Shown here piece by piece: positions 3,324-55,900 of a stretch of DNA of 64,000 nt; the first letter of the stretch is position 1; every line of letters starts with the position of its first letter. Under the pieces are notes generated by a model. That model saw only the letters and a program-made list of their open reading frames with translations, searched no databases and was not told where the DNA came from. The position numbers and the translations under genes are program-made. Source of the stretch: Podospora anserina (lineage: Eukaryota); contig CM030337.1 of the NCBI GenBank assembly GCA_017654855.1, positions 1,364,001 to 1,428,000 of the forward strand, in the 5' to 3' direction.

Positions 3324-3988
3324 CCTGGAGTCGTGGGTGGTAGATCTTTTGCGGAAAACAAACAACTCTATTTTTTCTGGTCAACAAAAGATATCTAGGT
3401 AGGGTAAGTATATAGGTAAGGTAAATGACGGGAGAGCGGCGGGGTGGTGAGTGTGTCCAGGGACACCACCAACAGAAGTGTCAAACGAAACGTCATGGCG
3501 GCTGTGTTCAGGTAGACAGAAAGTCCCTTCCAATCGGCTGTGGCGTTGCCGAACTTGGCCCTTTGTTGCTTTCTTTGTTTCTGACTTGCCTGCTGCTGGC
3601 TGGGCTGCTGCTGCTGCTGCGCTCCAACCTGAAAACGTGGTCGGCAGTGCAGCAGCCAACCACCTCGGAAATAGCGACCCTCCTTCTGCAGGCCCAGTGC
3701 CACCGTTACACCAACAGGGGTTCAGATGTGCTGTTGCTGAGTGGCGCAACCCCAGACTCGCCCGCCAAAGCTTATCTCAGCCGTTCCAACGAACCGCTGT
3801 TCGGTCCCAGATCATCGGATCATCAACACCCGGCTGTTGGCCACATGGACCCTCGGGAGCCAACATGTCATAGTGTGCGATTTCCCGCAAGACATACTGT
3901 ATTGGTGCAAATACATATATTCACCATCCCTCTAACCGGCCGACAAGCGCCATCATTACAAATCATATAAGTCGTAGGCTGAGCATCC

Positions 3989-6543
3989 TCAGATCTCCTT
4001 GCACCAGCGCGCCAAAACCGCATTGAGTTTTACCGCCGCCGGAATCTCCTCGAGTGCGACATCCAGCTTCCACATCTTGGAGTCCAGCCCGCTCAGACCA
4101 GCTGTTCCTCTCCCTCCCGAAGCCGCCGGCACAAGGAGACCGAGCGCAACTAGCCGCTCCCAGGCCATTCCTGCGATACCACGACCCCACACTCTTGTTC
4201 CGCCTCCAAGAACGAGAAGTCCCGAGCTTGCCGTCTGAGCTCGCTGCTTACTCATGAGCGACGAATACTCGTCGTAAGCCATCGCGAAGTTTACCGTATC
4301 CGTATGTGCTACAATGTCCAGGCGCGCCGCTGCGATTAAGAGTGAGAGGTCTAGATCTGATAGTGATTCCAGCATGTGCAGTTTCGAGTCCGGTGGGTCC
4401 AAAGAAACAGCGATGCTGGGTGCTGGTATCCGCGGGAAGGGAGATGTTGGTGTTAAACCCGCCAAAGGCATGACACACGTCGTCAAGAAAGCAGAGGTCG
4501 ACTTTGTGGTAGCAAAATATGACTCGAGGTGGTCTTTAAATCTCTGATCTTTGCTGTAGAGACGCTGCATTCGCCTGTTAGTACATGCGACTACATCCGC
4601 AAAGCTCATGGGAACTTACCTCGATCCGTTCGTTCCACCACTTCCAGAACTCTTCATGACCCTCCAGGGACTCATCAACACCCTCAGCTTCCATATCCTC
4701 CTCATCAATACTAAGTCCTTGCCTGCATACATCCCAGAATGCGGGAAGACTCTTTGGCAATGACAGATAGACATATCTGTGGCTGAATCGACTCTTGACT
4801 CTCTTCTCCAGACTCTCTACCACGTCGATCCTCGTCGTCAGACCAACAACCGCAATAGGCGCTTTCCGAGCCTGTGCAATATCAAACAGATTGTACAGAA
4901 GCGTTTGTCTGGCATGTGTGGCGAACAGATCGAACTCGTCTATCACAAATACAATCGACTTGGATGTGACGCCTTCGTGGGATTCGGCGATCTCCGAGGG
5001 ATGCGACAACAAAGCTAGCAGAGAAGCCATCGTGTCTGCGTAGTTGCTCGTCTGTATTTAATCAGCATTTCCTCGTGTTGTTTCGTATAAGGCAGTCCAA
5101 ACCTACCTTGTTAACAAGATCATCCTCCACAGCCATCTCCTTGCCCAACTGCCGCCAGATCTCCCTCAACGCCAGCTTATCATCAGTATGAATGAACCCA
5201 TTGAGCCTTACGACGTGAAACTCCTCCTTATGTTGCTTAGACACATCAGAGATAACCGACTCTATCAGCGTCGTCTTGCCACACCCCCGCGCACCAATGA
5301 CCAACATTGAGTTACCCTCACCAGCAACAATCGTCTGCTCCACCAGCTGAAACGTTTTCTCATACGCTTCGTTCTGCCCAAAAAGCTTGATCCGTCGCCT
5401 CCCAGAGCACCGATCAAGCAATACCCTTTGTGCCACACGCAAATGCTGTTCAAAATTGGGAATATCGGGCAGATCCTCAGCAACCTGCGCAACCGTCGCG
5501 GCTTTCATGTCTTGGAATGAAGCCCCCCTAACCTTTGCTGTATCGCCCACGCTCAGCATCCCTGCCGCTTTCTTCTCTGCACAGTCCTTGCAGAACCAGT
5601 CTCCCTTGGGAATCCTCGCAACGCCATAACACTTCTGATGAACAGCCATGTCGCAACTGTCACAAAACAGAATTTGGTTTCCACGTTTAGAGTCGGGTTT
5701 CGAGCAAACAGTGCAGACCTCATCATCTTCTTCCTCCTCGCTCTCTTCCTCCTCCGCCTCGTTTTCGTCCTCGGGCCCAACTTCGCCATCAAGTCCCAGC
5801 CCATGCTTTTCCCCTGTCTTCTTCGTCGGAGTACCCTCCTCATCTTCCTCACTTTCCTCCTCCTCATCATTTTTTCCCTTCGCAGCAAAAACAACATTCT
5901 TCTTTCCCCTCTTCCCATCCACTCCCTTTTCCTTTCTCGGCGTAAGTATCCCCTTTGGAACCGTGTGCATCCCACCACCCCGTAAGCTCGTCGCCGCTTT
6001 CCCTGAGAGCTTCTTTGTCGTGGTGACATCGTCCTCCTCCTGCTCCGCGACAGGTTCCGCCGCGACTGGCTTGTTAGGTGGCCGGCCTCGTTTTTTCTTC
6101 TCCGCTGGCGGTTCTTCCACATTCTCTTTATCATTTCGAGGAGCAGAAGTGACAGATTTTACCGTTGCCTTGCGCTTTGTGGCAGGAACAGTGGTGGTGG
6201 TGACTTCAGCAGAACTCAACTCATCCTCATCCGAAGCTGGAAAGTCGTAAATGTTACTCTTTTTCTTGACCGATGATTGCCGTGTTTTCTTGGTGGCGGT
6301 GAGAGGTTTGGGCTGGGGTTCTTCCGAGTCGGGAGCCTCATCGGAGTTGTTTGCTGCCGCAGGAGCAGGTGCCACGCGACGCCCACGGGGTTTTGCGCCG
6401 TTTGTTGCTGTTGCTGTTGATTCCTTCGATACTCGTACTCTTTTCGCGGCTGTTGTTGATGATAGTTCTGGCTCATCTTTGTTTTGGGAGCGTGCTCTTT
6501 TCTTGCCTGCTGCTGCGGCGGTAGTGGTGCCGCGGGGTGCCAT
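3989..6543 (-). CDS. ORC4: Origin recognition complex subunit 4 with N-terminal AT-hook and PHD finger; 2 introns (~5052-5107, ~4578-4619)
   Basis: Walker A GARGCGKT, RLNGFIHTDDKLAL, Walker B FVIDEFDLF, RQTLLYNLFD, LEKRVKSRFSHR; PHD CTVC...CDSC...HQKC...WFCKDC; KKRGRPP. Confidence 0.92.
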
Positions 6544-7377
6544 TGATGCTGAAAATGAGAGAGAAAAAAGAAAAATGTAGCTGCTATTCCAGCTTGATAT
6601 TACTATGAAGGAGAAAGAAAAATGACAACAATGAGAGTTGGAAAGGTGTCAGGTGAATGAGCTGCAGGTTTTCATGAGATGGGCTCAGTCAGACAGGGCT
6701 GCCAGTCGCGTCTCAACTCAGGTGCGAAGCGCGTTGGACTGTTAATTGTTCGCTTATAAGGATTTAAAGTGGGTGCTTCAGGGGCTGGAGGGTGATGCAA
6801 ATATCGATGGGAGCTTGGTCTGTGCAACCATTTCTGTATCATAATTATTGCTCTATTGAGGGTTGTCCAACGTCGATGCCTCACTTCACGAATGGGAATG
6901 GCCAATAAGTTGGGCAGACAATTGTAAGACGAGTGTTTGAGGCGTTCCTGCCTTGAATGTGGCTCCCCCATGCCTCCTTCCCAACGAAGCTCTTGCGCAA
7001 CATAGCTCTTTCCCGGCAACGCTCTAGCACTGCAGGGCTCCTGCCCAGAGTTCCAGTCCCTGCCACAATGCTCCTTCCATATGTCGTTCCTTCCTGCAGT
7101 CAGTTTTTTGACAGTGCAAAATCATCGCCCTTTTGCCCTTTTGCACATTACCTCTTTAACACATTTCCACATTATCACATACATTGCACCCTTTGCACTT
7201 GAGCCTTTTGCACATTACATTACCCCTGCAAATGAGTATCTTCGTCTGGCCATCTGTAAGTAGAGGATGGTTTCTCCATGAGTATTCTCAAGAAGCTCAC
7301 CCTCGACGTTGCAGGTTGCTTCTGGTCATTGCCGTGTGGCAAGAGACTCACCGAGACCGTAAACACCTATCACGAAG

Positions 7378-8177
7378 ATGAAGATCACCATTCTCAGCGT
7401 CACTGCTGGCGTTCTGGTCCTCTTCGGTGTATGTACCGCCAAGTAACCAGTCAGTTTGGACATCACTAACAACCAAATACAGACTACCCAGGCCTTCGAG
7501 GTCCCGGACGTCGTGCCCGCTGTCACCTTCAACATGCCCATCAACATCACTGACAAGAACAACGCCACCGTCCCTATCACTGGTACGATATACCCCCCGC
7601 AAGACTTTTCTCTACTATTCCCTACATCCTTTCAAGGTAGTGAACCACAAACGTTCTTGCTAACCACCACATCCACCAGGCACCATCCAGCAAGCTGTAG
7701 CCAAAATGGACACCGACTACCCCGGCTGGAAAGCCGCCTTCCAGGTCCCATGCCCCCCCCCACACGTGGCCCCTCCAAGAAGCCCAAAAAGATCGACTGC
7801 TGGCCCAAGGGAGAAGAGAAGACCGTCACCATCAACATCGAGGATGGCATCGCGTACCTCTCGGATATGCCCGGCCTCACCCAGAACGACACCGGCCAGT
7901 GCGGCCGCGTGAGCTGCTCGTACAACTCGGCCATTCTCTGGCGCAACACCGTAAGCTTTAACCCTCAACTCACCCCATCTTTGTTAATTTCTGGTTTCTG
8001 ACACGAGGCGAAAAAATACAGGATGTCAAGAAGAAGTACGTTCCGTGGCTGGACATTGCCGATTCTGCGTTTGATATCTGCCCTTGAGTGCAACTCCAAG
8101 GAGAGCCACGACTACGTCAGGGGCATGCCTACATGGATGGCAGGTGGACTACCATCGTTCGCAAGGAACAGTGCTGA
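7378..8177 (+). pseudogene. Frameshifted gene for a small Cys-containing secreted protein
   Basis: Signal peptide MKITILSVTAGVLVLF; GIAYL...CGRVSCSYNSAILW motif; coding-like segments switch frame near the C9 run (~7753) and twice in the last exon (~8080, ~8122). Confidence 0.55.
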
Positions 8178-35023: not shown

Positions 35024-35646
35024 TATTAATGTGTGGGTACTACTAAGTGCCCTACTTACTGCTTTACAGATTAATATTATAGTGGGCAGTACTGCTATAA
35101 ATAGTAATGGAACTTCCCGGCTTGGATCTCTTTAGTATATTCTTTATAAGAGACCCTTGAAGGCTTACAAGGCTACTGTGGCCTAAGGCTTAATTAATGG
35201 ATATTAAAACCTTTTAAAGTGGCTATAGGCTTACGTAGTAAGTTGCTACAATAGTGTAATTTATAAGGCACCTCTGCTACCGAAGGTTCTATGGATTTCC
35301 GTAAGTCTATACTAGACCCACCTAAGCCCACTAAATACCCTAAAGTAATATAGGGGCTTCCAGGGCCTATAGGACCCATAGTAGGCTTACGAAGGCCTAT
35401 ATATAGACCTCTCCTCTTTCCTGTAGAATAGTTCCTTTCTTTCTTTCTTTAAGGGGCAAAAGCTTAAGGCTAAGGCCAAAGGTAATAAAGGTAATTTTTA
35501 TTCTTTATACCTCACTGTATTACAGTGCTTTACCTTCCTTCGGCACTGCCGTCGTATCCTCCCGCTTCCGCTTGCGCACTGCTGTATTTTACAGTAACCC
35601 TGTATAGGTTCTATATTATAGGCCTATTAGGGCTTACTAGCTAACA
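35024..35646 (+). repeat. Copia solo LTR without matching TSD
   Basis: Near-identical to 38301-38932 and 43196-43827; flanks CCTTT vs ACTTT. Confidence 0.9.
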
Positions 35647-38300: not shown

Positions 38301-41300
38301 TATTAATGTGTGGGTACTACTAAGTGCCCTACTTACTGCCCTACAGATTAATATTACAGTGGGCAGTACTGCTATAAGCAGTAATGGAACTTCCCGGCTT
38401 GGATCCCTTTAGAATGTTCTTTACAAGGGACCCTTAAAGGCTTACAGGGCTACTGTGGCCTGAGGCTTAGTTAATGGATACTAGAACCTTCTAAAGTGGC
38501 TACAGGCTTACGTAGTAAGTTGCCACAATAGTGTAATTTACAGGGCACCTCTGCTGCCGAAAGTTCTATGGATTTCCGTGAGTCTACACTAGACCTACCT
38601 AAGCCCACTAAATACCCCAAAGTGGTATAGGGGCTTCCAGGGCCTACAGGACCCACAGTAGGCTTACGAAGGCCTATATATAAACCTCTCCTCTCTCCTA
38701 TAAAATAGTTTTCTTTCTTTCCTTAAGGGCAAAAGCTTAAGGCTAAGGCCAAAGGCCAAAGCCAAGGGTAATAAAGGCAATTCTTATTCCTTATACCTCA
38801 CTGTATCACAGTGCTTTACCTTCCTTCGGCACTGCCGTCGTATCCTCCCGCTTCCGCTTGCGCACTGCTGTATTTTACAGTAACCCTATATAGGTTCTAT
38901 ATTATAGGCCTATTAGGGCTTACTAGCTAATAGGTTATGAGCCCGGGCAACCACCTAGCCCGGAATCTAGCCTACTTATGCGCTTCCAGTCGACGTACCT
39001 ACAGCATTATACTACAGGCTGTACGGCTTCTTACTAAGAAGCCTTTTCCAGTAGAATTAGCGCTGTACTATAGGCTTTACTACTGCTGTGATTATAACCC
39101 TGGCCAATACTTTTAGGCTAATTTATAGCACTGTACTACAGGCTATATAGCTTCTTACTAAGAAGCTTCTTTAGTGGAATTAGTGCTGTACTATAGACTT
39201 TCTACTGTTATAACTATAACCTTAGGCCAATACCTTCAGGCTAATCGTCGATTTACAGCACTATACTATAGGCTGTACGGCTTCCGAGAAGCCTACTTAC
39301 TAACCTATACGGTTATTTTCTACTAAGTCCTCGCTTTTACTATAGCTAACTAGCCTATAGATTAAAACTACTTAGGTATTATAAAGGCTACTAGCCCTAT
39401 GGTACAGGCCTTATCGGCCCGTATCGACACTATTAAGGACAGGCTTCGGCAGGTTATATTACTGTTTAAAGTTTAGGCTACTAAATAGCTAGTAGCTGTA
39501 CCGGCCACCCACACTACCGAGCCTCCCGTGGCTCTAGCTGCTTCAGTACCTTCAGTACCTATTATAGAGCCTTTTATAGCGACCTTTAGTACACTTATTA
39601 TAAAAGAGCTCGCTAAATAGTCCCTGAACCTCGCTAAATAATAGCGCTTTTTAGGACCCGATAATTATTAATAGTGGCACTAGGCTATTTCTATATAATT
39701 TAGGGCCTTTAGAATACCTGAATTTCTAGAAAATCCTAATTCGGTAAACGCCCGGCTTTCCGACCCACAGAAAGCAGCCCTGCTATTGACCCTCAGAAAT
39801 ATACTAAAGGAAGGCCCGTTATCCACTATAGCCTTCGAAACCGACCCCGTTGTGGCCTATAAGCGCCTTCGCTCACAGTACGCTCCGGCGCAGCCTACCC
39901 TCCGAGACGAGCTATATAAGGCCTACCACTACTTGCAATTCAATAGGTCTATACCTATCGTAGATTTTAACGCCCAATTTAATACCTACGTAAGTAGGCT
40001 CGGGGCCTTAAGCGTTGAAATAGCCTAAATCGACTAACTAAACTACTATTTTAACGTACTGGAAAACCATTTTCCACAGTAGGCCGAGCGCTGTAAAGGC
40101 CTACTTCGGTAAGAGTAATAGCTCTACTATATAGAAGGCAAGCTTATTAGGCTAAGCCTTTTGTATTTCCAGGAAGACTTTTTAGCCGAAACCCGTAATT
40201 CGGTTACTTCCACTGCCCACTAATTACAAGCCCTATAGGTTACCTATAAGCCTATTAATAGCGAAAAGAAGCTTAACTTTTAGGCTTCTTAAGCTTACCG
40301 GTCCTTACTAAATAAGGACTAAAAGCCCTATAAAAAATAGGGCAATAAGTAGTAGAAGAAAGGCTTGAAAAAGGACGACCGCTATAACGACCGTTATAAC
40401 GGCCGTAAAGACGGCCGTAAGCATAGTCGTAAAGACGACCGTAAGGACTAAAAGGACTTACCCGCTACCGAGGCTTTTACTATAGGCTACGACCTTAACT
40501 TAGGCACTGTATTTGGAAGTAATATAATTGAAGAATATAGCGACTTAGGGCCTAATCCTCCCGAAGAACTAGCTAAATTTAGCCACTTAACCGCTACACT
40601 ACGTACCCAGTGGCTCTTCGATACAAGCTCTACAGTGCATATCTGTAACAATAAAGCCTTATTTACCAACCTACAGTTTTCTTCTTCCCTGAGCTGTGTT
40701 GGTACAGGCGGTGGCCCAGTCAAGCTACAAGGCAAAGGCACTATAGAAGTTAAATTCTTTAGTGGTTTTAAGGGCAAAAAAGCGGTATATACTACTGTAG
40801 CCCTTAAGGAGACCCTCTATATTCTAGACTTTCTACTAAATATAGTTAGTAGTTATAGGTTCTACGCCTCCGGTGGGACCCTTCTTAAGGACCGCCTATA
40901 TTCAGCTTCCAGGAAGCTACTGGCCCTCCTTAACTTCAAGAAAAATAAGTTCTTTTTTACTACTAAAACCACGGTTCCAGCTAAAATAGAGCATTTAACG
41001 CTACAAGCATACGGCTCTATTTGGTGCTACAGCACTGAAGACAGCGATTTAGACCCTGAATTAACTACCATTACGCCTGAATTTCTAGCTACCATAGCGC
41101 TTACCATAGCGCCTACTACAGTGCTTACTATAGCGCCTACTATAGCGCTTACTATAGCGCTTACTATAGTGCTTACTACAGCGCTTACTATAGCGCTTAC
41201 CACAGCGCTTACCATAGCGCCTACTATAGTGCCTACTACAGCGCCTACTATAGCGCCTATCATAGCGCCTAAACCAACTACCACTACGGCGCCTACCCCT

Positions 41301-43827
41301 CGCCGTATAAAGCATTCGCCCTACCAACGTAACTAAGTGTTAATTTAGGCTGCAAGACTCTGGCACGTTCGATTAGGCTATATAGGCCTAGACCTTCTGA
41401 AGAAAACTGCCCTAATTACTAAGGGTATACCCAATTTATAGAAGGTATAGCCTACAGATCTGACCTGTAAGAGCTGTGACGTAACTAAATTACTGCGTAA
41501 ACCTTTTAAAAGGCCTGTAACGGACCTACCGTATACGCTGAGTCGAATAGAAGGGGATATATTTGTAATTCGACCCACCCTACTAAACAGCAGGCCTTAC
41601 GGGCTTATTTTAGTGGACCGTAAAACTCGGTACAAGCTTGTTAGGCTCCTAAAAACTAAGGACGAAGTCGCTATAGAGGCTCGCTCCGCTATAGAGAGCC
41701 TATATAATACTTATAAGCGTCACCCGGCATAATTCTACTACGACGGGGGCAAGGAAATTCGAAAGCTACTGCCCTACCTTACTGAAAAAGGTATAACCTT
41801 TAGTGAGTTTAGCCTATACGCCCACCACCAAAACGGCCTAGCCGAGCGCTCTATTCGGGTAATTTTAGAGCGTTTATAAATTACTATAGTAGCTTCTGGC
41901 CTACTATTTACCCTCTAGTGCTACGTAATTAGCTCTATTATAAATATTATTAACCGTATAGCTACTTCCACTAAGGAATTTACGCCCCACTAGTTATTTC
42001 TTAACGAATTGGTGCCCTTACAGGCCCCTCACGTCCCGGACCTCGGACCTTATAGGGCTATAGGCGCTAAAGTTCTAGTATTTATACCGCCTAAAAAACG
42101 TATTACCGTAAAGAAGCTAGAGCCTAAAGCTACTAAAAGTAAGCTTCTAGCCGTACTAAGTAATAATACTTACTTAGTGTGGCTAGGCCACCGGTAAGTA
42201 ATTTAAACGCTATTCGTTAAACTATATAAAGATTATAGGCTTTATTTAGAAGGACCTATAGTCTCCATATCGTAACTAAGGCTTCTAGAACTGGAAGATA
42301 TTAAGCTTTTAGAAAGGGAACCCCTTATAATTACAGAAGGGGCACTTACTGCAACAGCACCTCCTAGACCTATACTTACGGTAATAGTACTTCTAAAGCT
42401 TACTAATATCGAAGTACTATTTCCGTAAGCTACTAAGCTACAGAAGAAGGAATTCGAAGTGGTAAATAACGATACTATAGATACTACTGCTCTAGTAAAT
42501 TATTTTATTAACCAGGCTACTACAGCTATTACTTACAGCACTACTTCTATTAGCACAGAACCTAGGACCTTTAAACAGGCCCTGAAGCACCCACTAAAGG
42601 ACCAGTAGCTACAGGCTTCCTTTAGTGAACTATAGCAGCTACTGAATTCCAAAACCTTTTACTTTATTAACCGCTCTCAGGCTCCAAAAAGGCCTATTAC
42701 TAACCGATGGGTCTATAAGGCTAAAAAGGACTTATAGGGCTAAATTATTAAATTTAAGGCCCGGCTAGTAGTTAGAGGCTTCTAATAGGTATCCGGAACC
42801 GATTTCACGAAGACCTTTATAGCTACTACGGTACTACCTACCTAGCGGGTTTTACTAGCTATTGCAGCTGAAGAAGACTTAGAAATTAAGTAAATTGATT
42901 TTGTTAGGGCCTTTCTTAACGCTAGTGTGGACTCCGATATATATATGGAAGTCCCTAAAGGCCTATACGAATATAGCCTTAGTAGCTAAACCGCTATAGA
43001 CTTTCTAAAATAATACTGTTAGGACCCTTCGAAGGACTAAGTTATAGTACTAAAAAGGTCCCTATACGGCCTAATAAAGGCCCTACCAGCACCTAAATTC
43101 TAGCGCTTTTTAGAGCTGATGAATTACCGGAAGCCTAGTACTTATAAGGGCCCTACGGCCTAGTAAGTGGGCACCTAATACTCCCACAGAAGGGGTGTTA
43201 ATGTGTGGGTACTACTAAGTGCTTTACTTACTGCCCTACAGATTAATATTACAGTGGGCAGTACTACTATAAGTAGTAATAGAACTTCCCGGCTTAAATC
43301 CCTTTAAAATATTCTTTACAAAGGACCCTTGAAGGCTTATAGAGCTACTGTGGCCTAAGGCTTAGTCAATAGATACTAGAACCTTCTAAAGTGGCTATAG
43401 GCTTACGTAGTAAGTTGCTACAATAGTGTGATTTACAGGGCACCTCTGCTGCCGAAGGTTTTATAAATTTCCGTGAGTCTACACTAGACCCACCTAAGCC
43501 CACCAAATACCCCAAAGTGGTATAGGGGCTTCCAGGGCCTACAGGACCCACAGTAGGCTTACGAAGGCCTATATATAGACCTCTCCTCTCTCCTGTAGAA
43601 TAGTTTTCTTTCTTTCCTTAAGGGCAAAAGCTTAAGGCTAAGGCCAAAGGCTAAGGCCAAGGGTAATAAAGGCAATTCTTATTCCTTATACCTCACTGTA
43701 TCACAGTGCTTTACCTTCCTTCGGCACTGCCGTCGTATCCTCCCGCTTCCGCTTGCGCACTGCTGTATTTTACAGCAACCCTGTATAGGTTCTATATTAT
43801 AGGCCTATCAGGGCTTACCAGCTAACA
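38301..43827 (+). mobile_element. Element C: Ty1/Copia retrotransposon, RIP-mutated, with internal RT/RNase H deletion
   Basis: 632-bp LTRs 38301-38932 and 43196-43827; TSD TAAAT (38296-38300, 43828-43832); PBS GGTTATGAGCCC 38933-38944; PR WLFDTSSTVHIC; LWHVRLG; IN QNGLAER before RT (KFKARLVVRGF, LKRSLYGL); PPT AGAAGGGG. Confidence 0.92.
41089..41270 (+). repeat. 12-bp coding minisatellite (~15 units, ACYAYAGCGCYT) in the copia PR-IN linker
   Basis: Translates as TIAL/TIAP/TTAP repeats in ORF 40635..41336. Confidence 0.85.
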
Positions 43828-44025: not shown

Positions 44026-44388
44026 TGAAATGGTGAGAAAACACACAAAACAACCACAACACCACAAATATACCCTCAACAGGTCTCAGAATGAACACAC
44101 CTGCGTGACAGTGACTCGCTCGCAGGCCGCACTTCACGTAGGACAAAGAAAAGACACTATGGGCTCGCAGGCCACATAATAAGCACCGGATTGGCCTGAT
44201 CAGAGGGCCAGAATTGCCTGCACGCGTGCAAGGCACAAAATACGAAGCAAAGAATAAAAGTCGATGTCCTGTCTAAAATAGAATGTCCGAAGCAGACCGC
44301 TTATATACATGACCCCTGAACCCCTGAGTCCTCTGAGAGCCCCGCTTCCTTACTCATACTCTCAGGCCTGTGGCCGCACCCCAAACCA
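44026..44388 (-). repeat. 3' LTR of element D
   Basis: Direct repeat of 55538-55900; preceded on the minus strand by PPT GAAGGGAGG (44391-44399). Confidence 0.95.
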
Positions 44389-44905
44389 AACCTCCCTTCG
44401 CATTTGACCACTACAAACCAGTGGGCAAATGCGTACACAAGAAAAAAATCCCTTACAAACCAAAAAAAAAAAAAAAAGAAAATATCGTTCAGCAGAAAGA
44501 AGGAAAACGATGTAATCCTGCTATCCCTTTATCCATTCTCCCTTGATCAGAGAGAAGAGCACCCTCACTTCTCGGATCTCAGAGCATACCTCCGTCCCTG
44601 TCGAGCCATCACAACTGGTGACCTAACGACCTCCTCCCTTCGTCTCTGAGGAACTCCAGGAGCCCACTCCCATCCCATGAAACCAGGTGTGTGATCAGGC
44701 GAAAGGTGTGTTGTTGGCGATCCTGAGTGGTCATAAGTAGGGGACGGGCAATTACAGGCCCAGAGAGGAGCGGCGAGTCCATTGTCACAGGAGTGCGGAA
44801 CCCAAAGGGGTTGCTACCCTGCTTGGTCGTTGAGAGTTGCTCGACACGCTACTTGGTCCAAACCCTTCATGATCAGAGGGAAGACCCACGACGCACTCAT
44901 CTCCC

Positions 44906-46087
44906 TCAACAGTAGTAACCAAAGCTAACGGAGAACCAGGGAGGGAAGCAAACCGGGGGAATTGGTGGAGACTTGAAAGGAGACGAGAGGGTGCTTGGCA
45001 GGTTGAATCCTTCCGCGTCCATCAAGTCCTCCAGGCCCCTCCTCCTCCATTTCTTATCACGCACCCTCTGATCAGGCTCACAACCCAAAGACCTTTTCAC
45101 ATAAGCCATCCACAACCTCATCATCTTCTTCCCCGCAACGCCCACGGTCTTGCAGTCTCTGTAGCAACGATCTCCTCTCCAAGCCTTTACTACCGTTAAA
45201 TCCTCCTCTTCACCGTACGAAACACCTCCCTGAAAGTAGGTACGGCAGTGCTCCAAGACCCAAAGACCACATTCCCACGCCCCGCCCTGTTCACCGCAAG
45301 CTGGCCTCCTCACTTTCACGTCAAGGCTGCAGTGGAAAGCGTGACGGATGTAAGATACCAGGCAAGAAATAGCATTAGCTTGATACCCCTTCCAATCCTT
45401 CGACGAGTCCATATAAACCAAAATGCCAGTAGCAACGTCGTAGATGCCCACTGCCCAGTGGCTTCCGTTGTTGACATGAATGGGGAGGACCCAGTATCGT
45501 CGGTCAAAGGCGTTGTGGTTGTCGTTAGGCAGGAAAAAGCGCATCGACGACTTCATCATAACAGGGTTCAGAGGCTCTCCAGGGATCCATATACAACGCT
45601 CGAGGATTCCCTGAAGAGAGTACCGAAGAGCGCAGGTAAGGACCGAGCTAGTGAGCCACTGCTTGGCCTCTAGTTGACCTTGAAGGTCATACATAGCGCA
45701 AGTGAGGGAAGCTACATGGATACCGTAGATGTGAGTCCGATCAGGGGGGGTCGTTATTCTCAAGCCAGGAAAAAGATATTTGATAGTGTCAATCGAAAAC
45801 TGCTCCACGAAAGTGGTGTTGATCCAGTCGGGCCGCCTTCCCACAACATAATCTCCTGGGTCGGCAACCAGGTTAAGGCCAAAACGAACAGGCCAGAGAG
45901 TGTCATCGCCTTGGGGAAGGAAGATGCCGCGCGGGGGACCAGAGCCATAGACCCTGTCGATACCTTGAAGGCGCGCTTTCCGAATAATCTCTTTAACGAG
46001 ATCATTGGGAGGGCCGAATTTCTTGGTGGCGGTGAATTCTTCCCATGACATGTCGTGAATGGACTTTGTAAAAAGCGTTGATGACAT
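44906..46087 (-). CDS. Ulp1/SENP-like cysteine protease (peptidase C48) encoded inside element D
   Basis: WLTSSVL, WVLPIHVNNGSHWAVGIYD (His), VYMDSS (Asp), EQGGAWECGLWVL (oxyanion Gln + catalytic Cys); 393-aa open frame, 3' end may be extended by splicing. Confidence 0.8.
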   Translation of the reverse strand: MSSTLFTKSIHDMSWEEFTATKKFGPPNDLVKEIIRKARLQGIDRVYGSGPPRGIFLPQGDDTLWPVRFGLNLVADPGDYVVGRRPDWINTTFVEQFSIDTIKYLFPGLRITTPPDRTHIYGIHVASLTCAMYDLQGQLEAKQWLTSSVLTCALRYSLQGILERCIWIPGEPLNPVMMKSSMRFFLPNDNHNAFDRRYWVLPIHVNNGSHWAVGIYDVATGILVYMDSSKDWKGYQANAISCLVSYIRHAFHCSLDVKVRRPACGEQGGAWECGLWVLEHCRTYFQGGVSYGEEEDLTVVKAWRGDRCYRDCKTVGVAGKKMMRLWMAYVKRSLGCEPDQRVRDKKWRRRGLEDLMDAEGFNLPSTLSSPFKSPPIPPVCFPPWFSVSFGYYC

Positions 46088-46352
46088 CGTTCTGTGAGAA
46101 TTGAGAGGGAGTAGTGTGTGGTGTGATCTGTGATCAGAGGGTTGTCGAGAGGGAAGTGAGGAATTTTTTTTGGAATGGAGAGTTAAAGAGGGAAGAAGGT
46201 CTTCGGTGAGTCTTTGTTCTCTGTTGTCTGCCTGGCTTGTAAGGCAAGATCATCAGATAGTTGCGTAAGCCGTTTGAGGAGGAAAGAGCGCTCTGATGAG
46301 TCTCCCTCCTGTAGAGGTCTGTAGGACCAGTCGCACCGTCCTATCCTCTGGT

Positions 46353-46360
46353 TATAAATA
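46353..46360 (+). promoter_or_regulatory. TATA box (TATAAATA) in the 342-bp spacer between the divergent accessory genes
   Basis: Canonical TATA 70 bp upstream of ATG 46430, followed by a CT-rich leader. Confidence 0.55.
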
Positions 46361-46429
46361 CCCATGCCAGTTCTCCTCATTCCCGCTCACTCCTCATCTT
46401 TTTCAGTACTTATTAACCGCTTCCTCCCA

Positions 46430-47500
46430 ATGGCCTCTTCTTTGAGGAAACCTGCTGCTTCGTCCGATCAGGCGGTCGACGACCTTACTACCCAGGTATC
46501 CACGACCTCTTTCGCCAAAAAACTTCCCAGTCAGGTCGAGGGAGTCCTTGACCTTACTGCGTACGACTGGTCCGAGGTCGCCATAGACCCTACTCAAGAG
46601 CCTTTGCTTGCTACCCTCACTCATCGTCCCACCGACCTCACCCGTGCTCCCAACAATCAAGGCGTTGCTTACAAGAGGCACGTCTGGGTTCGGCGTCCTA
46701 CTTGCGTTCACGACTCCACCATGCCCAAAGGTGCTAATGCTTATCACGACATTTCTCTCCCCCATCAGGCTGCTCTTTGGTACCTCAAGATTTCCCCTCT
46801 AGATCCCAAACACGTGGCTGCTCCCCTCTACCTTGAGTGGTTCCTCCCTGATCCGACGAAGAAGGGGGGTAAGAAAGAGTGGCAGCTACTTTTCAAGGAC
46901 ATTGGTGCGGACAAGACTATCACTGATTACATCTCCAAGGCGTTGTCGACCGGTTCCGTTAGGCGGATTTTCGTCGAACGGTCCAATGGGTGGTTCTTCG
47001 GGCGCTGGCTCTTCGAAATCGTCAAGCGGGCTCATCGCTCTAAAGGCTTATTTGTCCAGGCCACCGGGTTACTGTAAGTGCCGCCCCCCTGATCAGACTT
47101 AGCCTGACACTAACATGTTGGATTCAGTCATGCCAATCCATGTGATAAGTGCGATCAGAGCTATCGCCGGTCTTTCGTGACGTTCCCCGATGGGACCAAA
47201 ACTAAGGTGATGTGGCCATACTTCGGTTGTGTGGGAAGAGAGGACCTCGATTGGAAATGCGGGAACTGCTGGCATAAGGGTATCCATTACTCATGGTCCA
47301 GTGTTGATGAGGACAGCCCTTACTTCAAGGATCTTGGTAGTGGTGGGTTATCGAAGTTGGATCGTGGTGCCGTGAGCTTGATTCCTGGTGGTAAGGAAGT
47401 CGATTGGGACCAGGAGTGGGAAGAACAGCGGGCTGAGTACAAAGAGCTTAGGAAACAGCAGATGGATAAGAAGAAGGAGAAGAAGAAAGAAAAAGAATAG
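46430..47500 (+). CDS. Spliced antisense accessory gene of element D, 338 aa, Cys-rich DUF3716-like putative Zn/DNA-binding domain and basic tail (exons 46430-47073, 47128-47500)
   Basis: 54-nt intron GTAAGT...ACTAAC...CAG joins the two ORFs in frame: FVQATGLLHANPCDKC...WPYFGCV...KCGNCWHKG. Confidence 0.72.
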
Positions 47501-47748
47501 TCTTCCACTTCCTCAGATCAGAGGAAGGGGCATAAAGAGAGGAGTAAATCGGAAAAAAAAATAACAGGAAAAGAAAAAAAAAAAATTAAAAATTCAATGC
47601 GATAATCTTCACCCCAATCAATCACCTCCCTTAATGTCTTTCCTCCCTTTAAGAACAGACAGCTCCCACAGCTCTGTTCTCACAACACAAGCTTCAGTAC
47701 CCTCTTAAAGAAAAACAACAACTACAACGCCTTCGTCATCGTCTCCCC

Positions 47749-50700
47749 CTAATCACCCAAGAAGTCCTCTGGTCTACCCTTCTTCAGGACCACCTCTATA
47801 CTTTTGCCCTTCTCAAATCTCTTCTGCACCTCAGCATTCTTCCGTTCCATCCAAGTCTTCCCCCTGGTCATCATTCTCCCTGGTGTTTCTTCCACTATCT
47901 CTTCTTCTTCATCCTCATCTTCCACCATATCCACGCCTTCCTTCACTCCATTCCCAGGCACCTGCTCAACTCTCCCTAGTCCTGGCTGCATGTCCGTATC
48001 CTCTTCATCTACATACACGTCTTCCAACCTAAAAAACTTCTTTACCCTGTTTAGCGTATAAGAAGCTCGCAATGGCACCCCATCCAGTGTCTCCAGGAAG
48101 TAGCAAGTGTTGCCTGGTTCGACCTTCCTCACTCTGAAAGGGCCGTCCCAGCGGTACTGTAGCTTCCTTACCACACTCATATCCAACTTTCTATCCATTT
48201 TATACACCAACACCAAGTCCCCCCTTCTGATCATGCTATTCTCAGGCCTAATGCTGCGAATCCCTTTTCTGTTCTTTCTTGCCGCGGCTTTCTGTCTTGC
48301 CATACCAACCCTCTCAGCCACCAGAGTCAGATTCATCTCCTGGGATTTCAATAGTCTCGCCCTTGCCTCTATTAAATCCATAGTCGCTCTCTCCTTCCAG
48401 TGTCTCCCTGATCTGTCGAAGCCAATCTTTTCCCACTGGACGACTCTCCATAACGGTACGTCCTTTTCGATCGGCGTAATGGGGTTAAACCCATGTGCCA
48501 GATAGAAAGCACTGTACCCATAAATACCTCGTGTCGTGGTCCTATCAACAAACAACACATAAGGGAGCCACTGCTTCCACTTCTTCCCCGTCCCATCCGT
48601 CATTTTTGCCAGCATCGATGCAATTGGGATGTGACCAGACTCCGTCACTCCATTTGCTCTTGCGTTGTAAGGTGAGACCACCACCCGAAGAACTCCTAGC
48701 CTCTCTAAAATCTCAGCAGCTTCCTTCCTAAATTCTGATCCGCCGTCCACCACCACGATCAGAGGGTGACCCCATCTAAGGATGATATCGTGCAGGATAA
48801 AGTTCTCAACCCCAGAAGCCTTGCCTGAGCTCAAGACCTTCGCTTCTGGATACCCAGTCAAGTCATCCCTCGCTTCCAGAAGGTAGGCTTTTTCTCCCGA
48901 AGCCGTTGGTAAGAACTGAACGTCTAAATGCCACTTCGCAAATGGAGTAGCTAAAGGCTCAGTATATAAGTGCCAGTCCTCCCAACGCTTCGGGCTCCAT
49001 TGTTGACATTGCCTACATGTCTTGATCCAAGCCTCGACGTCAGCGTACATACCCTTCCAGTAGTAGTTTTCTACTACTCGGGCATAGGTAGCTTCCCGTC
49101 CTTTGTGGCCCATCTCGTTGTGACACGCATTGAAGACTCTTTCCCGCTCGATCAGAGGGTCAACAATTCTCCTAGGGGGAAAGCCTCCTTTATTTAGCTT
49201 AAGAAACAAAACTCCGTCTTCGAGAATCATTTTCAGGGCGTCATTCTTAATGGTCTGAACGTCAAACCTCGTCTTAGCCCTTGGCTCCGCACCAGTCGCG
49301 AGGAACTCGGCGATAGCATGGGAGTAAGGAGACCACAGTCCATTCAAGTAGGGGCCTTGCCCAATAACTTCCTTTTTCTTCTTCCTGATATTCACCCGCC
49401 AGACACTTACTTCCTGGATATCGTTCTTCCAGATCCTTGCGTCAACCTCATCATCAATGTCTGGCTCTAACTCCTTCTCCCTCAGATCAGAGGGGCCAGG
49501 TGGCTTTCTCGATAGTGCGTCTGCCACAAGGTTCTTACTCCCAGGGATGTGAACAATTGTGAAGTCGAAAAGTCTAATCCATCCCAGCCATCTCATCATC
49601 AAGGCGCCGGGAACGTCACTAGCCGCCCCCTGGACTTGGTGGACTACCACTTGAGCGTCCGTTTCCACCGTAAAGTATACCCCGAAAAGATACCTTCTAA
49701 ATCTCCTCAAAGTATACAACAGTCCTCTCAACTCCCTCTTGGTGGCATCATACCTCTGTTCAGCCGGGCTCCAAATACCACTCTCAAACCGACAAGGGTA
49801 CCGTTTTCCATCAGGTCCTACTTATTCAATCACCGCTCCCCACCCCGTCAAGCTTGCATCAAAAATAACAAAGATTCTACCGAAACGGTCGTCATCAAAC
49901 GTCAGAGAAGCCAGACACGGTGCCTCTATAATCAAAAAGGCAAGCCACTCCATCGCACCCTGTTAAGCTTCCGTCCATTCCCATCTCGTGTCCTTCCTCA
50001 TCAAGAAATACAGCGGAACTGCAATCAGATTGAAGAGAGGTACCCATAGCCGATAGTAACCGGTGATCCCCAGGAAGGCGCGAACATCCTTAAGACTGTG
50101 GCAAGTTCGCCATTCCCTTATCTTCACTATCTTTGTCTGATCAGGGAGGCGCCCGTCCGGTGTACAGGAATAGCCAAGGATAACAGCTTCCCGTCTGCAC
50201 CAAAGGGATTTCACGGCTGCAATTGTGGCTCCTGCAAGCTCACAGTTAAGCAAGACTGCGTCGATATTCTTCAAGTGCTCCAGGACCCACTTCCTAACTC
50301 CTGGCCTTTCTTCTTCACCATTGTAGTCCCACCTTGGCCCTTTCACTGCGATATCGTCCAGGTATGGCCGACACACCTGTGGGATAAGATCTTGAAAGAC
50401 TCTGGTCACGGCTCTTTGGAACTGGGCCACTGAGTTGGTAGCTCCTTGAGGTAGGGTACACATCCTGAATAGGCCGATAGGTGTCGCGAAGGTAGTGAGG
50501 TCTCGGCTCGTCAGGGCTAATTTGACTTAGTCGTATCCGGAGAAGAAGTCAAGCAAGGAGGTAATAAGGCACCCTGCAAAGTCCTCGCTGAACTCCTCAG
50601 TGCTTGGTGGGATAAAGGCATCTCGTTGCGTAACCTTATTGTATCTCTGGGCATCGTTGATCAGACGGAGGCCACCATCCTTTTTCTTTACTAGGAACCA

Positions 50701-53700
50701 GTTATTGCGGTAGGGACCATGCGCTTCCTCAATAATATTTCTCTTGATTCGTTCCCTAAGGAGATCGATGACTTTCCCCACGAGTGGCTTCGGGATCGGA
50801 ATAGACTTGCTTTGCCACGCTTTGTGAGGGATAGTCCTAATATGTTGAGCAGGGAAGACTTCTTCAAGGATCTGTCCACACTCGGTGAAGTCCCATGCCA
50901 GTGCAGCCTCCCTTGCGAATAAGATTGCCGTAAACACTTTAACCTCCTGATCTATCAAAATGTCGGTGGTTTGTCTGATCAGATCGGCTAAGCGTTCTGG
51001 AGTGAGGCGTGACCCTCTAATCATTTCAGAAAACTTAGGGACCACAATATCGTCGAATTCTGAGCCGTATTGTAGGGATTCCTTAACTGCCGCCCATCTC
51101 CTTACTTTCCAGTTCGGATCTCCTTCAGGAGTGCTACCATCTGACCCAGCATTATCAACCGGCTTCACCTTCTTATCTACCCTCTTGTACATCGTAGCAG
51201 TAGTAACAATATCCGCAGGCGTTGGCCAGGCCTGTTCAAAAGTAGTGATCAGGCTGGTCTTCATATTGTTTTTCTTCTCAGAAGGGGGCGGAGGTGGATG
51301 ACGTCTATGTGGTTGTGTAGTGAAGAGGCTGCGCTAACCTGGTTGAGTGAGGGACCAGTTAAATATCCCCAAGCATAAGGATGCCATATCGGGCTTAAAT
51401 GGGGTTATCCTGCTAGTCCTCTGATCAGACGGCGGCGATGTCTTTAGCAGTGGTGGCGACGGTACTAAATGCAGACCTGTTATGAAGGTCGGTGGTGGCG
51501 GTCGTTCTTTCCCTGAGATTTCGTCCGAAGTTAGAGTTCTTGTCGTAATTTCCACTCTTCCAGGCTGAAACAAAGACTTCTCTTTCTGGCAGTCCCTTAT
51601 ACCTCCCTTCTTTCCTTCCCTCTGATCACTAATATTCTTTCCTCCCTTGCTCCTAACATCCCCCTTTTCTTTGTTTTTATAAGAAATAATATCAGACGCC
51701 AGGCAATAATTTAATAACGGCAAACTTGACTCCCCCAAAATAAAATTAAGCAAAGAACGCCCAGCTCCTTCATTCAGTCCCCCAATCACTTCATCCCCTT
51801 CCTCCAGCTCCTCCGTTACCCACTCAGGGACAGGTACTCCTTCATTAACCAATCCCTTAAACACCTGTAAGGGTCAGCTGGCAGGAGAGGCATTACCTCG
51901 ATCCCTGCCGTTATATTCCGCCTTCATCTTATCAATCACCTCCTTTTTTACCACGTGGGCCTTAATCAGCTTTCCCCCATACAACATATTCGCGCTAATC
52001 ATACAGCCCTTCATAAAATCAAGGGTGAGGCTCGTATCCGTGAAGAACGGGATGCCCAATAGCAGGTCATGGAAACCCAGAGCCTCAGTGTTATCAATAA
52101 CGAAGAAATAACACAAAATTGGAACCCCAGCCAGCACTACTGGAGCCTGAGTCTCACCTATAAACGCAACCGGATCTCCATGAAGGCCTTTAGACTGTAG
52201 GTTCGTCGACACCATCGGTAGACAGAACCTCTCAGCTACAGCCCTACTGATCAGGTTGCACTCCGAGCCTGTGTCCAACATTGCCAGCACCTTCTCTGAA
52301 GTTGGTGAGACGAAGTTACAATATAGCGATGGGACGTTATGGGTTCGAGTGACGGCTCCCAGGAGAGTTCGCTCACTACCGGAAAGCCGGCCAATGGGCG
52401 TAGACAGCAGAGTCCGCAATCGCTCTTCTGGGCTGTCACCCGGTTGGACCTTGCCTTCGATGATCTTCTCCCAGATGCCTCCCTCGACCACACCATACTC
52501 ACCATCCGCCGTAATCCCGTACAAAGCAGGGACAGTCTTCCTCTGATCAGACGGAGGAGTCTTACTGTGTCCAGCCGTCTGAAAATTCGTCCGAACCGTT
52601 AACGGCAAGGCCTCCCCCTTCTGTGGGACTTCTCTCTTTCCATCCGGGGTACTCTTGGAAGATCCACGCCACTCGATCACCTCAGCATCCTCGGCCACAC
52701 TCTTCACGTAATCCATCAACCGGTAAACAAATGTGGGTGAAACCCTACAATGCTCTTCCAGTGTGAACTTAGTCTGACCACAGGCGTACTTTTTGGCTTT
52801 CTCGGCAATATAATCCCCAGAGTCCTCTGCCTCACCATCAGGCAACCTTGAGCCACTCCGGACTCCATCCCCCTGATCGGACGAGACTCCCTCCTCAACT
52901 ACCTTTGGCTTCTCTTACGCGGGGGTGAGTACCACTTTCGGATTTTCGGCTGAGGCTGGGTCATCCATATCCTCTTTCGGCAGATCCTCGATCCTTACTC
53001 TCTTCGCTCCTTGCGCGCCTACCCCCACTTCCACCTCTTGGTTGCAGACGACCACTGGGGCATCATCAGAGCGCTTCAGAATGCTCCTAGGCGACCACTT
53101 CTCTGCTGAGCAACGTTGCAAGGCATTCCTAGTAATGTAGTCACTGGCTGAGTTCTCGTTAAACGGTACGTAGGGTTTGGAGTACCCATGAAGCCTGTTT
53201 AACCTAACATCCATAGCCCTGGCCATCTGAGTAGCTGTCTGCTCCCTCCCTCTGATCAGAGAGACCTCGGGCCTATATCCCTTGCCCTCACGAGCTTCCC
53301 AGTGCTCAGCCCATTTCGTGTAAGCTTCATAGGCCCTATTCAGTTCTGGTTTCAACGAAATTGCAGCACGAACCAGGTCGCCAACCTTCCCTTCACGCTG
53401 CGCCTTCCTCACATCCTCTTGATCAAGCCACGCTTTTTCACTCTCCGGCCACTCCTTCTTACCGATACACACTCTGCCTCCTTCAGTATAGCACAGTCCC
53501 CACGCCTCATCATACTCCTTCTTCGGACACTCCGTCGACTTAGCGTAATGGCCAGTCTTGCCGCACCAGAAGCACCTTCTTAGTGGGGGAGGGCTATCGC
53601 GGTACTGCCCCCCTAATCTTCCGAACTGGGTTTTAGTATCAACAATGGGGAAGGTATTAAAAGACGAATCCATTTCCCCATTAGGGCCAATGCCAAAATC

Positions 53701-54957
53701 CAGGGAGTAAGGTGCCTGGTCTTCTAGGTGTTGAACGCGGGTCCTCATTATCCCAGATTTGCCGTTTCCCGGTGCAGAGAAACCACCGTAGATATTCGCC
53801 CTCAAATGCTGCAGTGCCATCTCTCTGTCTACCATAGCGTTAACCGCCATATACTGGTCGAGCACCTCGGCCGCCTGATCAGAGGCAGCAGGGGAGGGTG
53901 CAATGGTTGATTTGTCCTCCTTGTAGATTCTTCCTCCCACGTCATACCCATCTTCGATCACATCATTAATCCAATCGCTCCAGGTAATAAAATTCATGGA
54001 TCTTAAACGACGTTCGGATCCTCCTCGGTTGATAAGGGTCATCCTCATTAACTCGGAGAATTTCATCCAAAAGCGGCTGGCAACCCTGGCTCTTACTGCC
54101 TCTTTCTCCCCGGTCGGCACTCGAGAGAGCAGTTTAGAGTGGTCAAAAACAACCTTCCTTAACTCGCCCACACCTTCAGGGATAACCTTGGCGTAGAAGT
54201 CATCCAACTCCCTGTGGATATCTTCGTCTTGTCGGGGGTCATAGATCTTAAAGAGGCGTTTAAGGCGGACAACCAGGACAGGCCAAGTATCGGTGGGTGT
54301 AGGTAGGTCTACACATTCGTCAATCTGTTTTCCCACATCGAAGTCACACCAGGATTTGAACTTGCGAACGCGAGAGGTAAATTCCACGACATGGTACTCT
54401 TCACAGGCATTCTCGAAACGCTCCAGATATTCCGTAAAGTGCTTCCCTTTGAAGTTGCTCTTAAAACCGACTTTCTTCGGATCAGGGAATTCACGCTGAG
54501 GAAAATACATAGGCACCATGGGATAGGGGGTTGGATGATCAGACGTAGGGGACCCCTGGAAGTGGCGATAGTCGGGGTAAGCTCCTATGGGATATGGGTA
54601 TCCGGGTTGCTGGAATTGATGCGCGAACCCAGGAAGAGGAGCGGGATATCCGGCATGCCGAGTGGGAGGCGCAGTATGATTCCAAGCAGCAGGATTTGGG
54701 TGGGTACGAGGTCCACCTGGCACGTCAGGAGCGTTGGGCCTTGCAGTCGGGCCACCTTGATCAGAAAGGGGGCGAGGGGTCTCAGCATCTTCAGGGTGAG
54801 CGCGGTTCGCAGCCGGGGAGAGGACGAATGGTGATGATTCCGGGGACCTGGCCGCCGGAATGGCCACTTCTACCACGGAACGAGCCGTAGGAGCTTGATA
54901 CCCCTGGTTGTCGCCGGGAAGGCTAGCCGAAGCGATGGGTGGGACATTGTCGGACAT
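47749..54957 (-). pseudogene. gag-pol of element D: one reading frame (~2400 codons) with six in-frame stops
   Basis: Zn knuckle CFWCGKTGH...C; PR MLDTGS; RT LDFFSGYD, LPQG, YLDD; RH FDAS, ETDA, ADALSR; IN H..H..CRQC, HLD, VDGG, NGVTE, WDGPF; no chromodomain; all consecutive ORFs share one frame. Confidence 0.88.
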
Positions 54958-55518
54958 GTCGATACTCGATGATTGCTGTTGCGTTTGCGTTGGTGGTATG
55001 GCTTTTTCCTTGTGTATGTTGTTGGAAATATGAAGACGGTTGTCCCTTGCAACTCCAGTATGTGGGCATGAGTTACATCTACCCAGATCAGAGGGAAAGT
55101 GTCCTCGTCTCCTTGCTTTTGGGTTCCCGATGTCCTGAGTCAAACTGACCCGGAAATCCCCACGATTGTCCACCATCGCTAAACAACACACCAGGAGGAT
55201 TCCTCCTAACCAAAGATAGGAGAGGACTTTGATAGTTGACGCGGAGATAAGGTCCACTAACGAGCTAGTCTCAACCAATGCTCTTAGTTCACTTCCCGGT
55301 CCCATCCGGACCACACACTTGACTCTCCACTCGCGGGCAGAAAGTTTAGAGTTTGGTCGATGATGAAAGAGCTTTATCCGATCAGACGGAGAAGAATCGT
55401 TTCCGTTGAACCTCGCGGGGTTCAGTGAAGTTGTCGGTGCTTGTTGTCGTTCGTGGCTTCGCACTTCCTCCAGTACCCAGGGCTTGTGAGTCCAGTTTGG
55501 ACCCTGAGCTTTGCTCAA

Positions 55519-55535
55519 CCCGGGCACGACCTCCA
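55519..55535 (-). promoter_or_regulatory. Primer-binding site of element D, complementary to a tRNA 3' end (tRNA-Gln-like)
   Basis: Minus strand TGGAGGTCGTGCCCGGG begins 2 nt after the 5' LTR; complement CCCGGGCACGACCT-CCA. Confidence 0.75.
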
Positions 55536-55537
55536 TT

Positions 55538-55900
55538 TGAAATGGTGAGAAAACACACAAAACAACCACAACACCACAAATATACCCTCAACAGGTCTCA
55601 GAATGAACACACCTGCGTGACAGTGACTCGCTCGCAGGCCGCACTTCACGTAGGACAAAGAAAAGACACTATGGGCTCGCAGGCCACATAATAAGCACCG
55701 GATTGGCCTGATCAGAGGGCCAGAATTGCCTGCACGCGTGCAAGGCACAAAATACGAAGCAAAGAATAAAAGTCGATGTCCTGTCTAAAATAGAATGTCC
55801 GAAGCAGACCGCTTATATACATGACCCCTGAACCCCTGAGTCCTCTGAGAGCCCCGCTTCCTTACTCATACTCTCAGGCCTGTGGCCGCACCCCAAACCA
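55538..55900 (-). repeat. 5' LTR of element D
   Basis: Direct repeat of 44026-44388; TATATAA on the minus strand ~55813-55819. Confidence 0.95.

Follow-up and report, generated by a model that had tools for sequence, protein, structure and literature searches.

A conserved Ulp1/SENP-fold protease gene carried by a Ty3/Gypsy retrotransposon of Podospora anserina

An LTR retrotransposon with two accessory genes

In the window, i.e. the whole 64,000-nt stretch of Podospora anserina DNA analysed here, the protease ORF is enclosed by an 11,875-nt Ty3/Gypsy element (44026-55900) on the minus strand; its two LTRs (363 nt, TG...CA) have the same sequence, and a target-site duplication of 4 nt borders it (Table 1). 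Pfam searches gave the gene order gag-zinc knuckle, aspartic protease, reverse transcriptase (RT), RNase H and integrase, which identifies the element as Ty3/Gypsy; LTR termini, duplication and domain order agree with this group. No chromodomain was found by Pfam after the integrase in the window element, which places it outside the chromovirus clade. Downstream of pol lies a plus-strand gene, which a head-to-head spacer of 276 nt separates from the protease ORF; the 3' LTR closes the element. This is the env-like location proposed in the first-pass annotation: the ORF has the sense of pol, lies between pol and the 3' LTR, and is separated from pol by an antisense gene.

Table 1 Features of the retrotransposon and of its protease gene (positions in the window)
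Feature	Position	Strand	Remarks
5' LTR	55538-55900	-	363 nt, TG...CA; TATA-like box at about 55813-55819
gag (zinc knuckle) and aspartic protease	51874-55536	-	terminal TGA not RIP-private; one internal RIP stop
pol (RT, RNase H, integrase)	47722-51864	-	no chromodomain found; RIP-made stops in the window copy
Antisense gene	46364-47500	+	predicted intron at about 47074-47127 (GTAAGT...CTAAC...CAG)
Head-to-head spacer	46088-46363		near 46350-46360 a TATA-like stretch; leader rich in pyrimidines; DNA word present once
Ulp1/SENP-fold protease gene	44565-46087	-	natural frame about 507 aa; broken in the assembly near three sites given in the text
Catalytic domain with family-specific N-terminal extension	45074-45860	-	about aa 76-338; W144, H210, D227, Q267, C273
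Conserved C-terminal motif (RPPTYDH...HLSPDH...GW type)	44670-44747	-	past the stop of the 393-aa ORF
3' LTR	44026-44388	-	identical to its 5' twin; purine tract before it; both LTRs bordered on the outside by the 4-nt target-site duplication
Partly palindromic DNA word, core GATCAG/CTGATC	44196-55714		36 sites at even spacing, in coding as well as non-coding DNA

The insertion site consists of AT-rich, RIP-decayed repeats. The same nest contains another LTR-like repeat in three copies (35026-35646, 38303-38932 and 43198-43827) and a 12-nt tandem array (41054-41305). The pol frame ends 8 codons past the last RIP stop, and the Pol relatives P0036 and P0038 stop at the same place. At 51864-51880 (minus strand) the TGA of the gag-protease frame overlaps a CTGAC branch-like site with a CAG acceptor-like site next to it; P0036 and P0038 start at the matching position, and the protease domain is absent from most Pol relatives among the best 120 of 232 matches. 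Expression of pol may depend on splicing or on a start of its own. The primer-binding position (55519-55537, minus strand) begins with TGG at a distance of two bases from the 5' LTR, and the first ATG of gag overlaps with it.

Elsewhere in the genome, the LTR loci L021-L040 have target-site duplications of 4 nt, most of which are centred on TA (e.g. CTAT, GTAC, ATAT, CTAC), and at least 9 of these 20 loci resemble solo LTRs with intact duplications. The sequence CTGATCAGA occurs 456 times genome-wide (G000) as against 85 for its reversed control, which exceeds what the few intact copies would yield; part of the surplus comes from solo LTRs, and part may be ordinary sequence bias.

The spacer between the two accessory genes is, from its sequence, probably a divergent promoter serving both the protease and the antisense gene, in agreement with an earlier suggestion that the protease has a promoter of its own. 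In public run X1, whose RNA nature is a guess, a single 11,513-nt contig extends from 55763 in the 5' LTR, 50 nt past the TATA-like box, to 44243 in the 3' LTR. The LTR depth was not raised in X1, and X5 was similar; in the DNA-like run X15 the LTR bins reached 3,185-7,815 vs about 240 in the interior, a more than tenfold difference. None of the runs containing the element is recorded as RNA, and the RNA status of X1, X5 and X8 was in each case guessed by the tool. The X1 contig looks like a genomic transcript of a copy without RIP changes, and the whole element is probably transcribed. The RNA-like runs showed no subgenomic protease mRNA, and no splice joints were listed in the three of them, whose contigs drop minority forms.

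The window copy carries 67 private C-to-T changes, all on one strand and 57 of them in CpA, and this is light RIP. Six of its seven in-frame gag-pol stops were made by RIP, and only one private C-to-T change falls inside the protease gene. The CA sites hit by RIP in the window element amount to 43/301 for pol, 11/163 for gag, 5/78 for the antisense gene, 1/114 for the protease gene together with the spacer and 0/22 for the LTR, and a similarly uneven bias was noticed in the copy at C8:4154790-4166651. The unevenness may simply be a fall-off towards repeat ends. The protease gene clearly does not shield the element from RIP, because 11 of the 14 examined copies are heavily RIP-mutated through this very gene.

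Length, fold and catalytic residues of the protease

The uninterrupted 393-aa ORF at 44906-46087 (minus strand) is present as described in the first-pass annotation, but its stop is not the natural end of the gene. The coding-like sequence noticed down to about 44565 (...RRYALRSEK*) does extend the protein, although splicing is not needed to reach it, as it belongs to the same exon, broken by single-base indels. In one of the three other young copies the open frame reaches ...RRYALRSEK, database proteins P0001/P0030 (562 aa) and P0031 (507 aa) read through the three indel sites, and all four public runs compared differ from the window near 44955, 44806 and 44739. Together these data give one exon of about 507 codons, and a spliced C-terminal extension is rejected in view of the same sibling copy, database proteins and public contigs, which give one unspliced 507-aa frame. 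The 562-aa length of some database entries results from an upstream in-frame start. Since, in the four young copies, homopolymer runs of at least 3 account for 40 of the 41 indels, the three indels of the window are most likely assembly errors, a reading limited for the window copy by the fact that public-run contigs drop minority alleles. P0001, the only close protein match and assigned to Podospora anserina in UniRef/NCBI, stands in public databases under an automatic 'ubiquitin-like protease' label.

The motifs PIHVNNGSHW, YMDS and EQGGAWECG, on which the original assignment was based, were found in C48 order and correspond to the catalytic set H210, D227, Q267 and C273, arranged as in clan CE. 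Among 24 aligned rows of the family (20-36% identity) His is kept in 24, the second position is Asp in 15 or Asn in 8, and Gln and Cys are each kept in 20; the catalytic Cys is missing in three rows, being replaced by Ser in P0010 and P0014 and unaligned in P0029. Because these residues are kept at such low overall identity, the alignment argues for selection on catalysis.

The window protein matched the Pfam model PF02902 with E 0.0015 and 18.8 bits, i.e. below the gathering score of 20.7; among 26 related proteins 15 pass the cut-off, 8 match below it and 3 give no match. A profile built of 24 family proteins led to yeast Ulp1 (E 7.2e-13), followed by Ulp2, SENP8 and others. For the alignment-based AF2 model (pLDDT 73.9) the top Foldseek match was 1euv (Ulp1, E 2.7e-7), and the ESM Atlas result agrees with the Ulp1 fold. 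A single-sequence AlphaFold model was set aside for its pLDDT of 34.8. The VIA structure comparison gave tied Z values of 13.8-14.3 to SENP8, SENP5, SENP7, SENP3, Ulp2 and Ulp1 (SENP8 2bkq: Z 14.3, rmsd 3.6, 197 aligned; Ulp1 1euv: Z 13.9, rmsd 3.6, 198 aligned), and the structural matches to cellular Ubl proteases share 10-16% sequence identity, those with the top Z values 10-15%. The C48/CE-clan assignment is in this way backed by the catalytic set, the family profile, Foldseek and Z of about 14, and the Ulp1/SENP fold is matched by both the profile and the AF2 model, the single-protein PF02902 match remaining under the cut-off. The earlier caution that the substrate is not readable from the sequence was justified, as the fold scores for SUMO and NEDD8 proteases are tied.

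With the cellular Ulp1/Ulp2/SENP and Den1/SENP8 enzymes (PF02902, clan CE) the Podospora protein shares the fold, the His-Asp-Gln-Cys order and a Trp before the core. It differs from them by its own N-terminal extension, which carries RP...FP and LxDLEG, and by its C-terminal motif, and it is not orthologous to the three host genes. The C-terminus is composed of a variable, disordered low-complexity linker, the conserved motif and an Arg-rich tail; the motif is present in 15 of the 28 proteins examined, P0001 included, and is also visible in the metagenomic contig L052. P0025 and P0026 differ in their C-termini, which are long; P0003 is probably a fused gene model. The C-terminal Trp motif with the basic tail is, as far as its sequence suggests, probably a targeting or partner-binding part.

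Genome copies, host enzymes and relatives

A tblastn-type search of the genome with the ORF gave 51 matches, 0 of them at the three host C48 loci, and no match to these loci appeared at E 0.1 in the whole genome. An LTR match was found nearby at 14 of 14 examined loci, and the antisense gene stood beside the ORF at 13 of them (at one only in part). Besides the window copy the genome contains three other young copies. The protease gene differs among young copies by 1-6 substitutions, and the old copies differ almost only by RIP. One further locus (L002/L004, G000:C1:5043199-5048400) is an internally deleted, RIP-damaged copy, in which the gag-pro protease region runs straight into the final third of the Ulp1-like gene.

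The best blastp matches of the ORF to host C48 enzymes had 20-23% identity and E 0.01-0.04 in a tiny set of sequences. In the tree of 26 rows, of which only 3 are host proteins and in which branches are long, the three host enzymes (Ulp1, Ulp2, Den1) stand on their own branch, set apart from the family proteins with support 92/96. P0012, P0015, P0020, P0024 and P0026 were omitted from this tree by the trimming rule; the labels hostUlp1 and hostUlp2 are presumably swapped, judging by motifs, with no effect on the result. No close sequence or tree affinity to host Ulp1, Ulp2 or Den1 was found by the genome search, blastp or the 26-row tree.

Word-based homologue searches found P0001 alone, or P0001 and P0029; the other relatives come from an exhaustive search, which returned 29 proteins at E up to 0.001. 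Relatives of 22-39% identity occur in other Sordariomycetes, the named ones in Staphylotrichum, Parachaetomium, Trichocladium, Cercophora, Cladorrhinum, Lasiosphaeria and Sporothrix. For the protease P0004 and the Pol protein P0036 the longest contig is identical in size (11,361 nt) and source (JGI); the proteases P0034/P0006 and the Pol proteins P0038/P0161 come from contigs of equal size (11,685/11,677 nt, NCBI/ENA), and P0019 (protease) and P0067 (Pol) from a same-size contig of 12,197 nt (Logan). Contig sizes of 3 of the 28 protease relatives are equal to one among the best 120 of 232 Pol matches, with 0.11 expected, and the shared contigs (11,361-12,197 nt) are element-sized. Protease and Pol similarities over six pairs, which are not independent, gave a Spearman coefficient of 0.94. 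The shared contig sizes and sources and the parallel similarity ranks support, indirectly and through a size coincidence for 3 of 28 relatives, the co-inheritance of protease and Pol in a retroelement clade.

No flanking DNA of the relatives was found in viral contigs, and the metagenome scan for their loci gave one 1,682-nt contig (L052) with no flanks. A scan of prokaryote genomes gave a 3,937-nt contig (L053) in a Bacteroidetes MAG with a related Pol fragment, which is probably fungal contamination.

Obtained results make the protease almost certainly an element-borne, conserved C48-fold gene. The ORF has long resided, as an accessory gene, in a Ty3/Gypsy clade without chromodomain in Sordariomycete fungi, and is not a neutral capture confined to one copy, being present in all examined copies and in distant relatives and lying far from the host C48 genes.

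The element-wide DNA word, known systems and possible function

Exon 2 of the antisense gene encodes a Cys-rich sequence that matches DUF3716 weakly (Pfam PF12511; E 0.46, short of the cut-off); exon 1 had no usable match in the ESM Atlas. A detached copy of this gene, intron included, was noticed at L050:5719-6980 (G000:C1:5806718-5807979); it is 90% identical, with mixed and not RIP-only changes, and has no LTR, pol or protease matches around it. The DNA word has 7 matches in this copy vs 1 in the preceding 5.7 kb.

In the window, 32 of the 36 matches to CTGATCA fall in the element, with 5.85 expected across the whole window. The element ORFs contain 26 word sites vs a mean of 11.1 and a maximum of 20 in 1,000 synonymous shuffles, and the spacing of the sites is more even than in all 5,000 of 5,000 random placements. 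With the same kind of shuffle control, host ORFs contain 6 sites vs 3.6; for the protease ORF alone the numbers are 2 vs 0.6, an excess that is not significant.

The first-pass annotation stated that Ulp1-like cargo is known mainly from DNA transposons. Such cargo does occur there, but the accessible part of PMC4640811 describes it also in the non-LTR retroelements NeSL and Utopia. These nematode elements are, like the present one, retroelements with a Ulp1-like cysteine protease, N-terminal and fused to RT in their case, whereas in Podospora the gene stands alone, at the env-like place of an LTR element. In DNA transposons, Ulp1 domains have been reported in Ginger1 and Mutator, with unsettled function and a proposed aid to transposition (PMC2836005, accessible part), and in CACTA elements (PMC8978399, accessible part). 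These share with our element a C48 domain on a mobile element, but they are DNA transposons, and in Ginger1 the domain is fused to the C-terminus of the transposase. No LTR element with a Ulp1/C48 gene was found in the literature searched, subscription papers, Repbase reports and bioRxiv supplements being outside its scope, and such a gene is not mentioned in the accessible parts of the fungal LTR survey PMC3248453, of PMC6431247 and PMC6338049, or of the Podospora LTR papers. A Ulp1-type protease as cargo of an LTR retrotransposon is apparently undescribed so far.

A likeness is offered by plant VANDAL/non-TIR Mutator elements, in which some VANC genes (KIU, Kaonashi) bear a Ulp1 domain whose role is unsettled (PMC13317346, accessible part), and in which silencing is relieved by VANC, a protein binding to a short motif (PMC5735166, accessible part). 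Both systems combine a Ulp1 domain long kept by a transposon with an accessory protein and with a short DNA motif specific to the element; the Podospora element is indeed enriched in such a motif. It is, however, of LTR and not of Mutator type, and its protease is separate from the candidate DNA-binding protein, in contrast to the fused Ulp1 and VANC. The VANDAL motif lies in non-coding tandem repeats, while the Podospora word is dispersed through coding DNA, and the likeness here is one of sequence.

Judging by fold and conserved residues, the protease is quite probably an active Ubl-removing enzyme; that it acts against silencing, as the plant analogy suggests, is a plausible but tentative reading. 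Such a CE-clan cysteine protease would remove a ubiquitin-like modifier, most likely SUMO, possibly NEDD8 or ubiquitin. It would be expressed from the internal divergent promoter common with the antisense Cys-rich gene and would strip the modifier from chromatin or silencing factors at the element, which would favour transcription and transposition of the latter. The Cys-rich protein, reading the element-wide word, would perhaps guide the protease, like plant VANC/KIU on VANDAL transposons. The two genes may in this way form a sequence-addressed anti-silencing module, in which the word, recurring about once per 330 nt in the genes of the element itself, is bound by a DUF3716-type reader that recruits a Ulp1-fold eraser of SUMO/NEDD8 on the silencing machinery; we give this reading a probability of roughly 0.3. 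Repeat silencing requires SUMO in several eukaryotes. In Neurospora the H3K9 methylation complex includes Cul4, a neddylated cullin, although it is disputed whether Cul4 must be neddylated there.

The same evidence of fold and conservation would fit an active Ubl isopeptidase working on the element's own proteins or on the integration step, independently of the word and of silencing. It would spare Gag or integrase a SUMO/ubiquitin-dependent turnover, or tune DNA repair at insertion sites. Ginger1 transposases fused to Ulp1 and OTU domains, which have been proposed to take part in transposition or repair through these domains (PMC2836005, accessible part), and the Ulp1 domain within the RT protein of NeSL and Utopia (PMC4640811, accessible part) point in this direction. 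The Podospora protease is, however, not fused to pol, but is a separate gene facing the Cys-rich gene over a short spacer, which suggests joint regulation of two accessory genes, and action on element proteins is in our opinion possible but doubtful.

Maturation of the element's polyprotein or particle, in the manner of poxvirus I7L, ASFV pS273R or adenovirus protease, is unlikely: viral CE-clan proteases do appear among the fold matches (Z about 10) and three relatives have weak Peptidase_C57 matches, but cellular Ubl proteases score 3-4 Z units above the viral ones and the element retains its aspartic protease. In most Ty3/Gypsy elements a second protease is not needed for maturation. Equally improbable seems a host-acting cargo, e.g. 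a toxin-antidote or developmental effect exerted with the DUF3716-like gene and kept via host fitness or transmission. The head-to-head pairing of the two accessory genes would agree with it, as would the effect of a DUF3716 gene of a Zymoseptoria transposon on pycnidia formation (PMC8232023, accessible part), but the element-wide DNA word is left unexplained. That a host gene for Ulp1, Ulp2 or Den1 was captured recently and neutrally, with which only the shared fold agrees, is largely refuted and most improbable in view of the lack of matches at the host loci, the low blastp identity, the separate host branch, and the presence of the gene in old and young copies and in other fungi.

If the two-gene module is true, these fungal LTR retrotransposons would have in it a convergent counterpart of plant VANC/KIU. 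Ulp1-like domains have been acquired repeatedly by unrelated transposons, and their function there is still a puzzle; in Podospora, a genetically tractable and non-pathogenic model fungus in which the family is apparently transcribed, the question of why transposons have SUMO proteases becomes testable, and a mechanism by which silencing is countered in fungi could come to light.

The element family may be grenouille, a name absent from the text and one supplement of PMC2441463. A preprint (10.64898/2025.12.02.690432) says in its accessible part that grenouille carries a chromodomain, in contrast to the window element, where none was found. The protease ORF is not mentioned in the accessible main texts of this preprint and of PMC10787394. 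According to the accessible part of the latter, grenouille is the second most abundant Ty3/Gypsy family of Podospora, with 426,455 bp in P. anserina, and has uniform LTRs, a recent expansion and nearly all copies damaged by RIP. The suggested identity comes from abundance and not from sequence: 426,455 bp would correspond to about 35 copies of 11.9 kb, which fits the window element.
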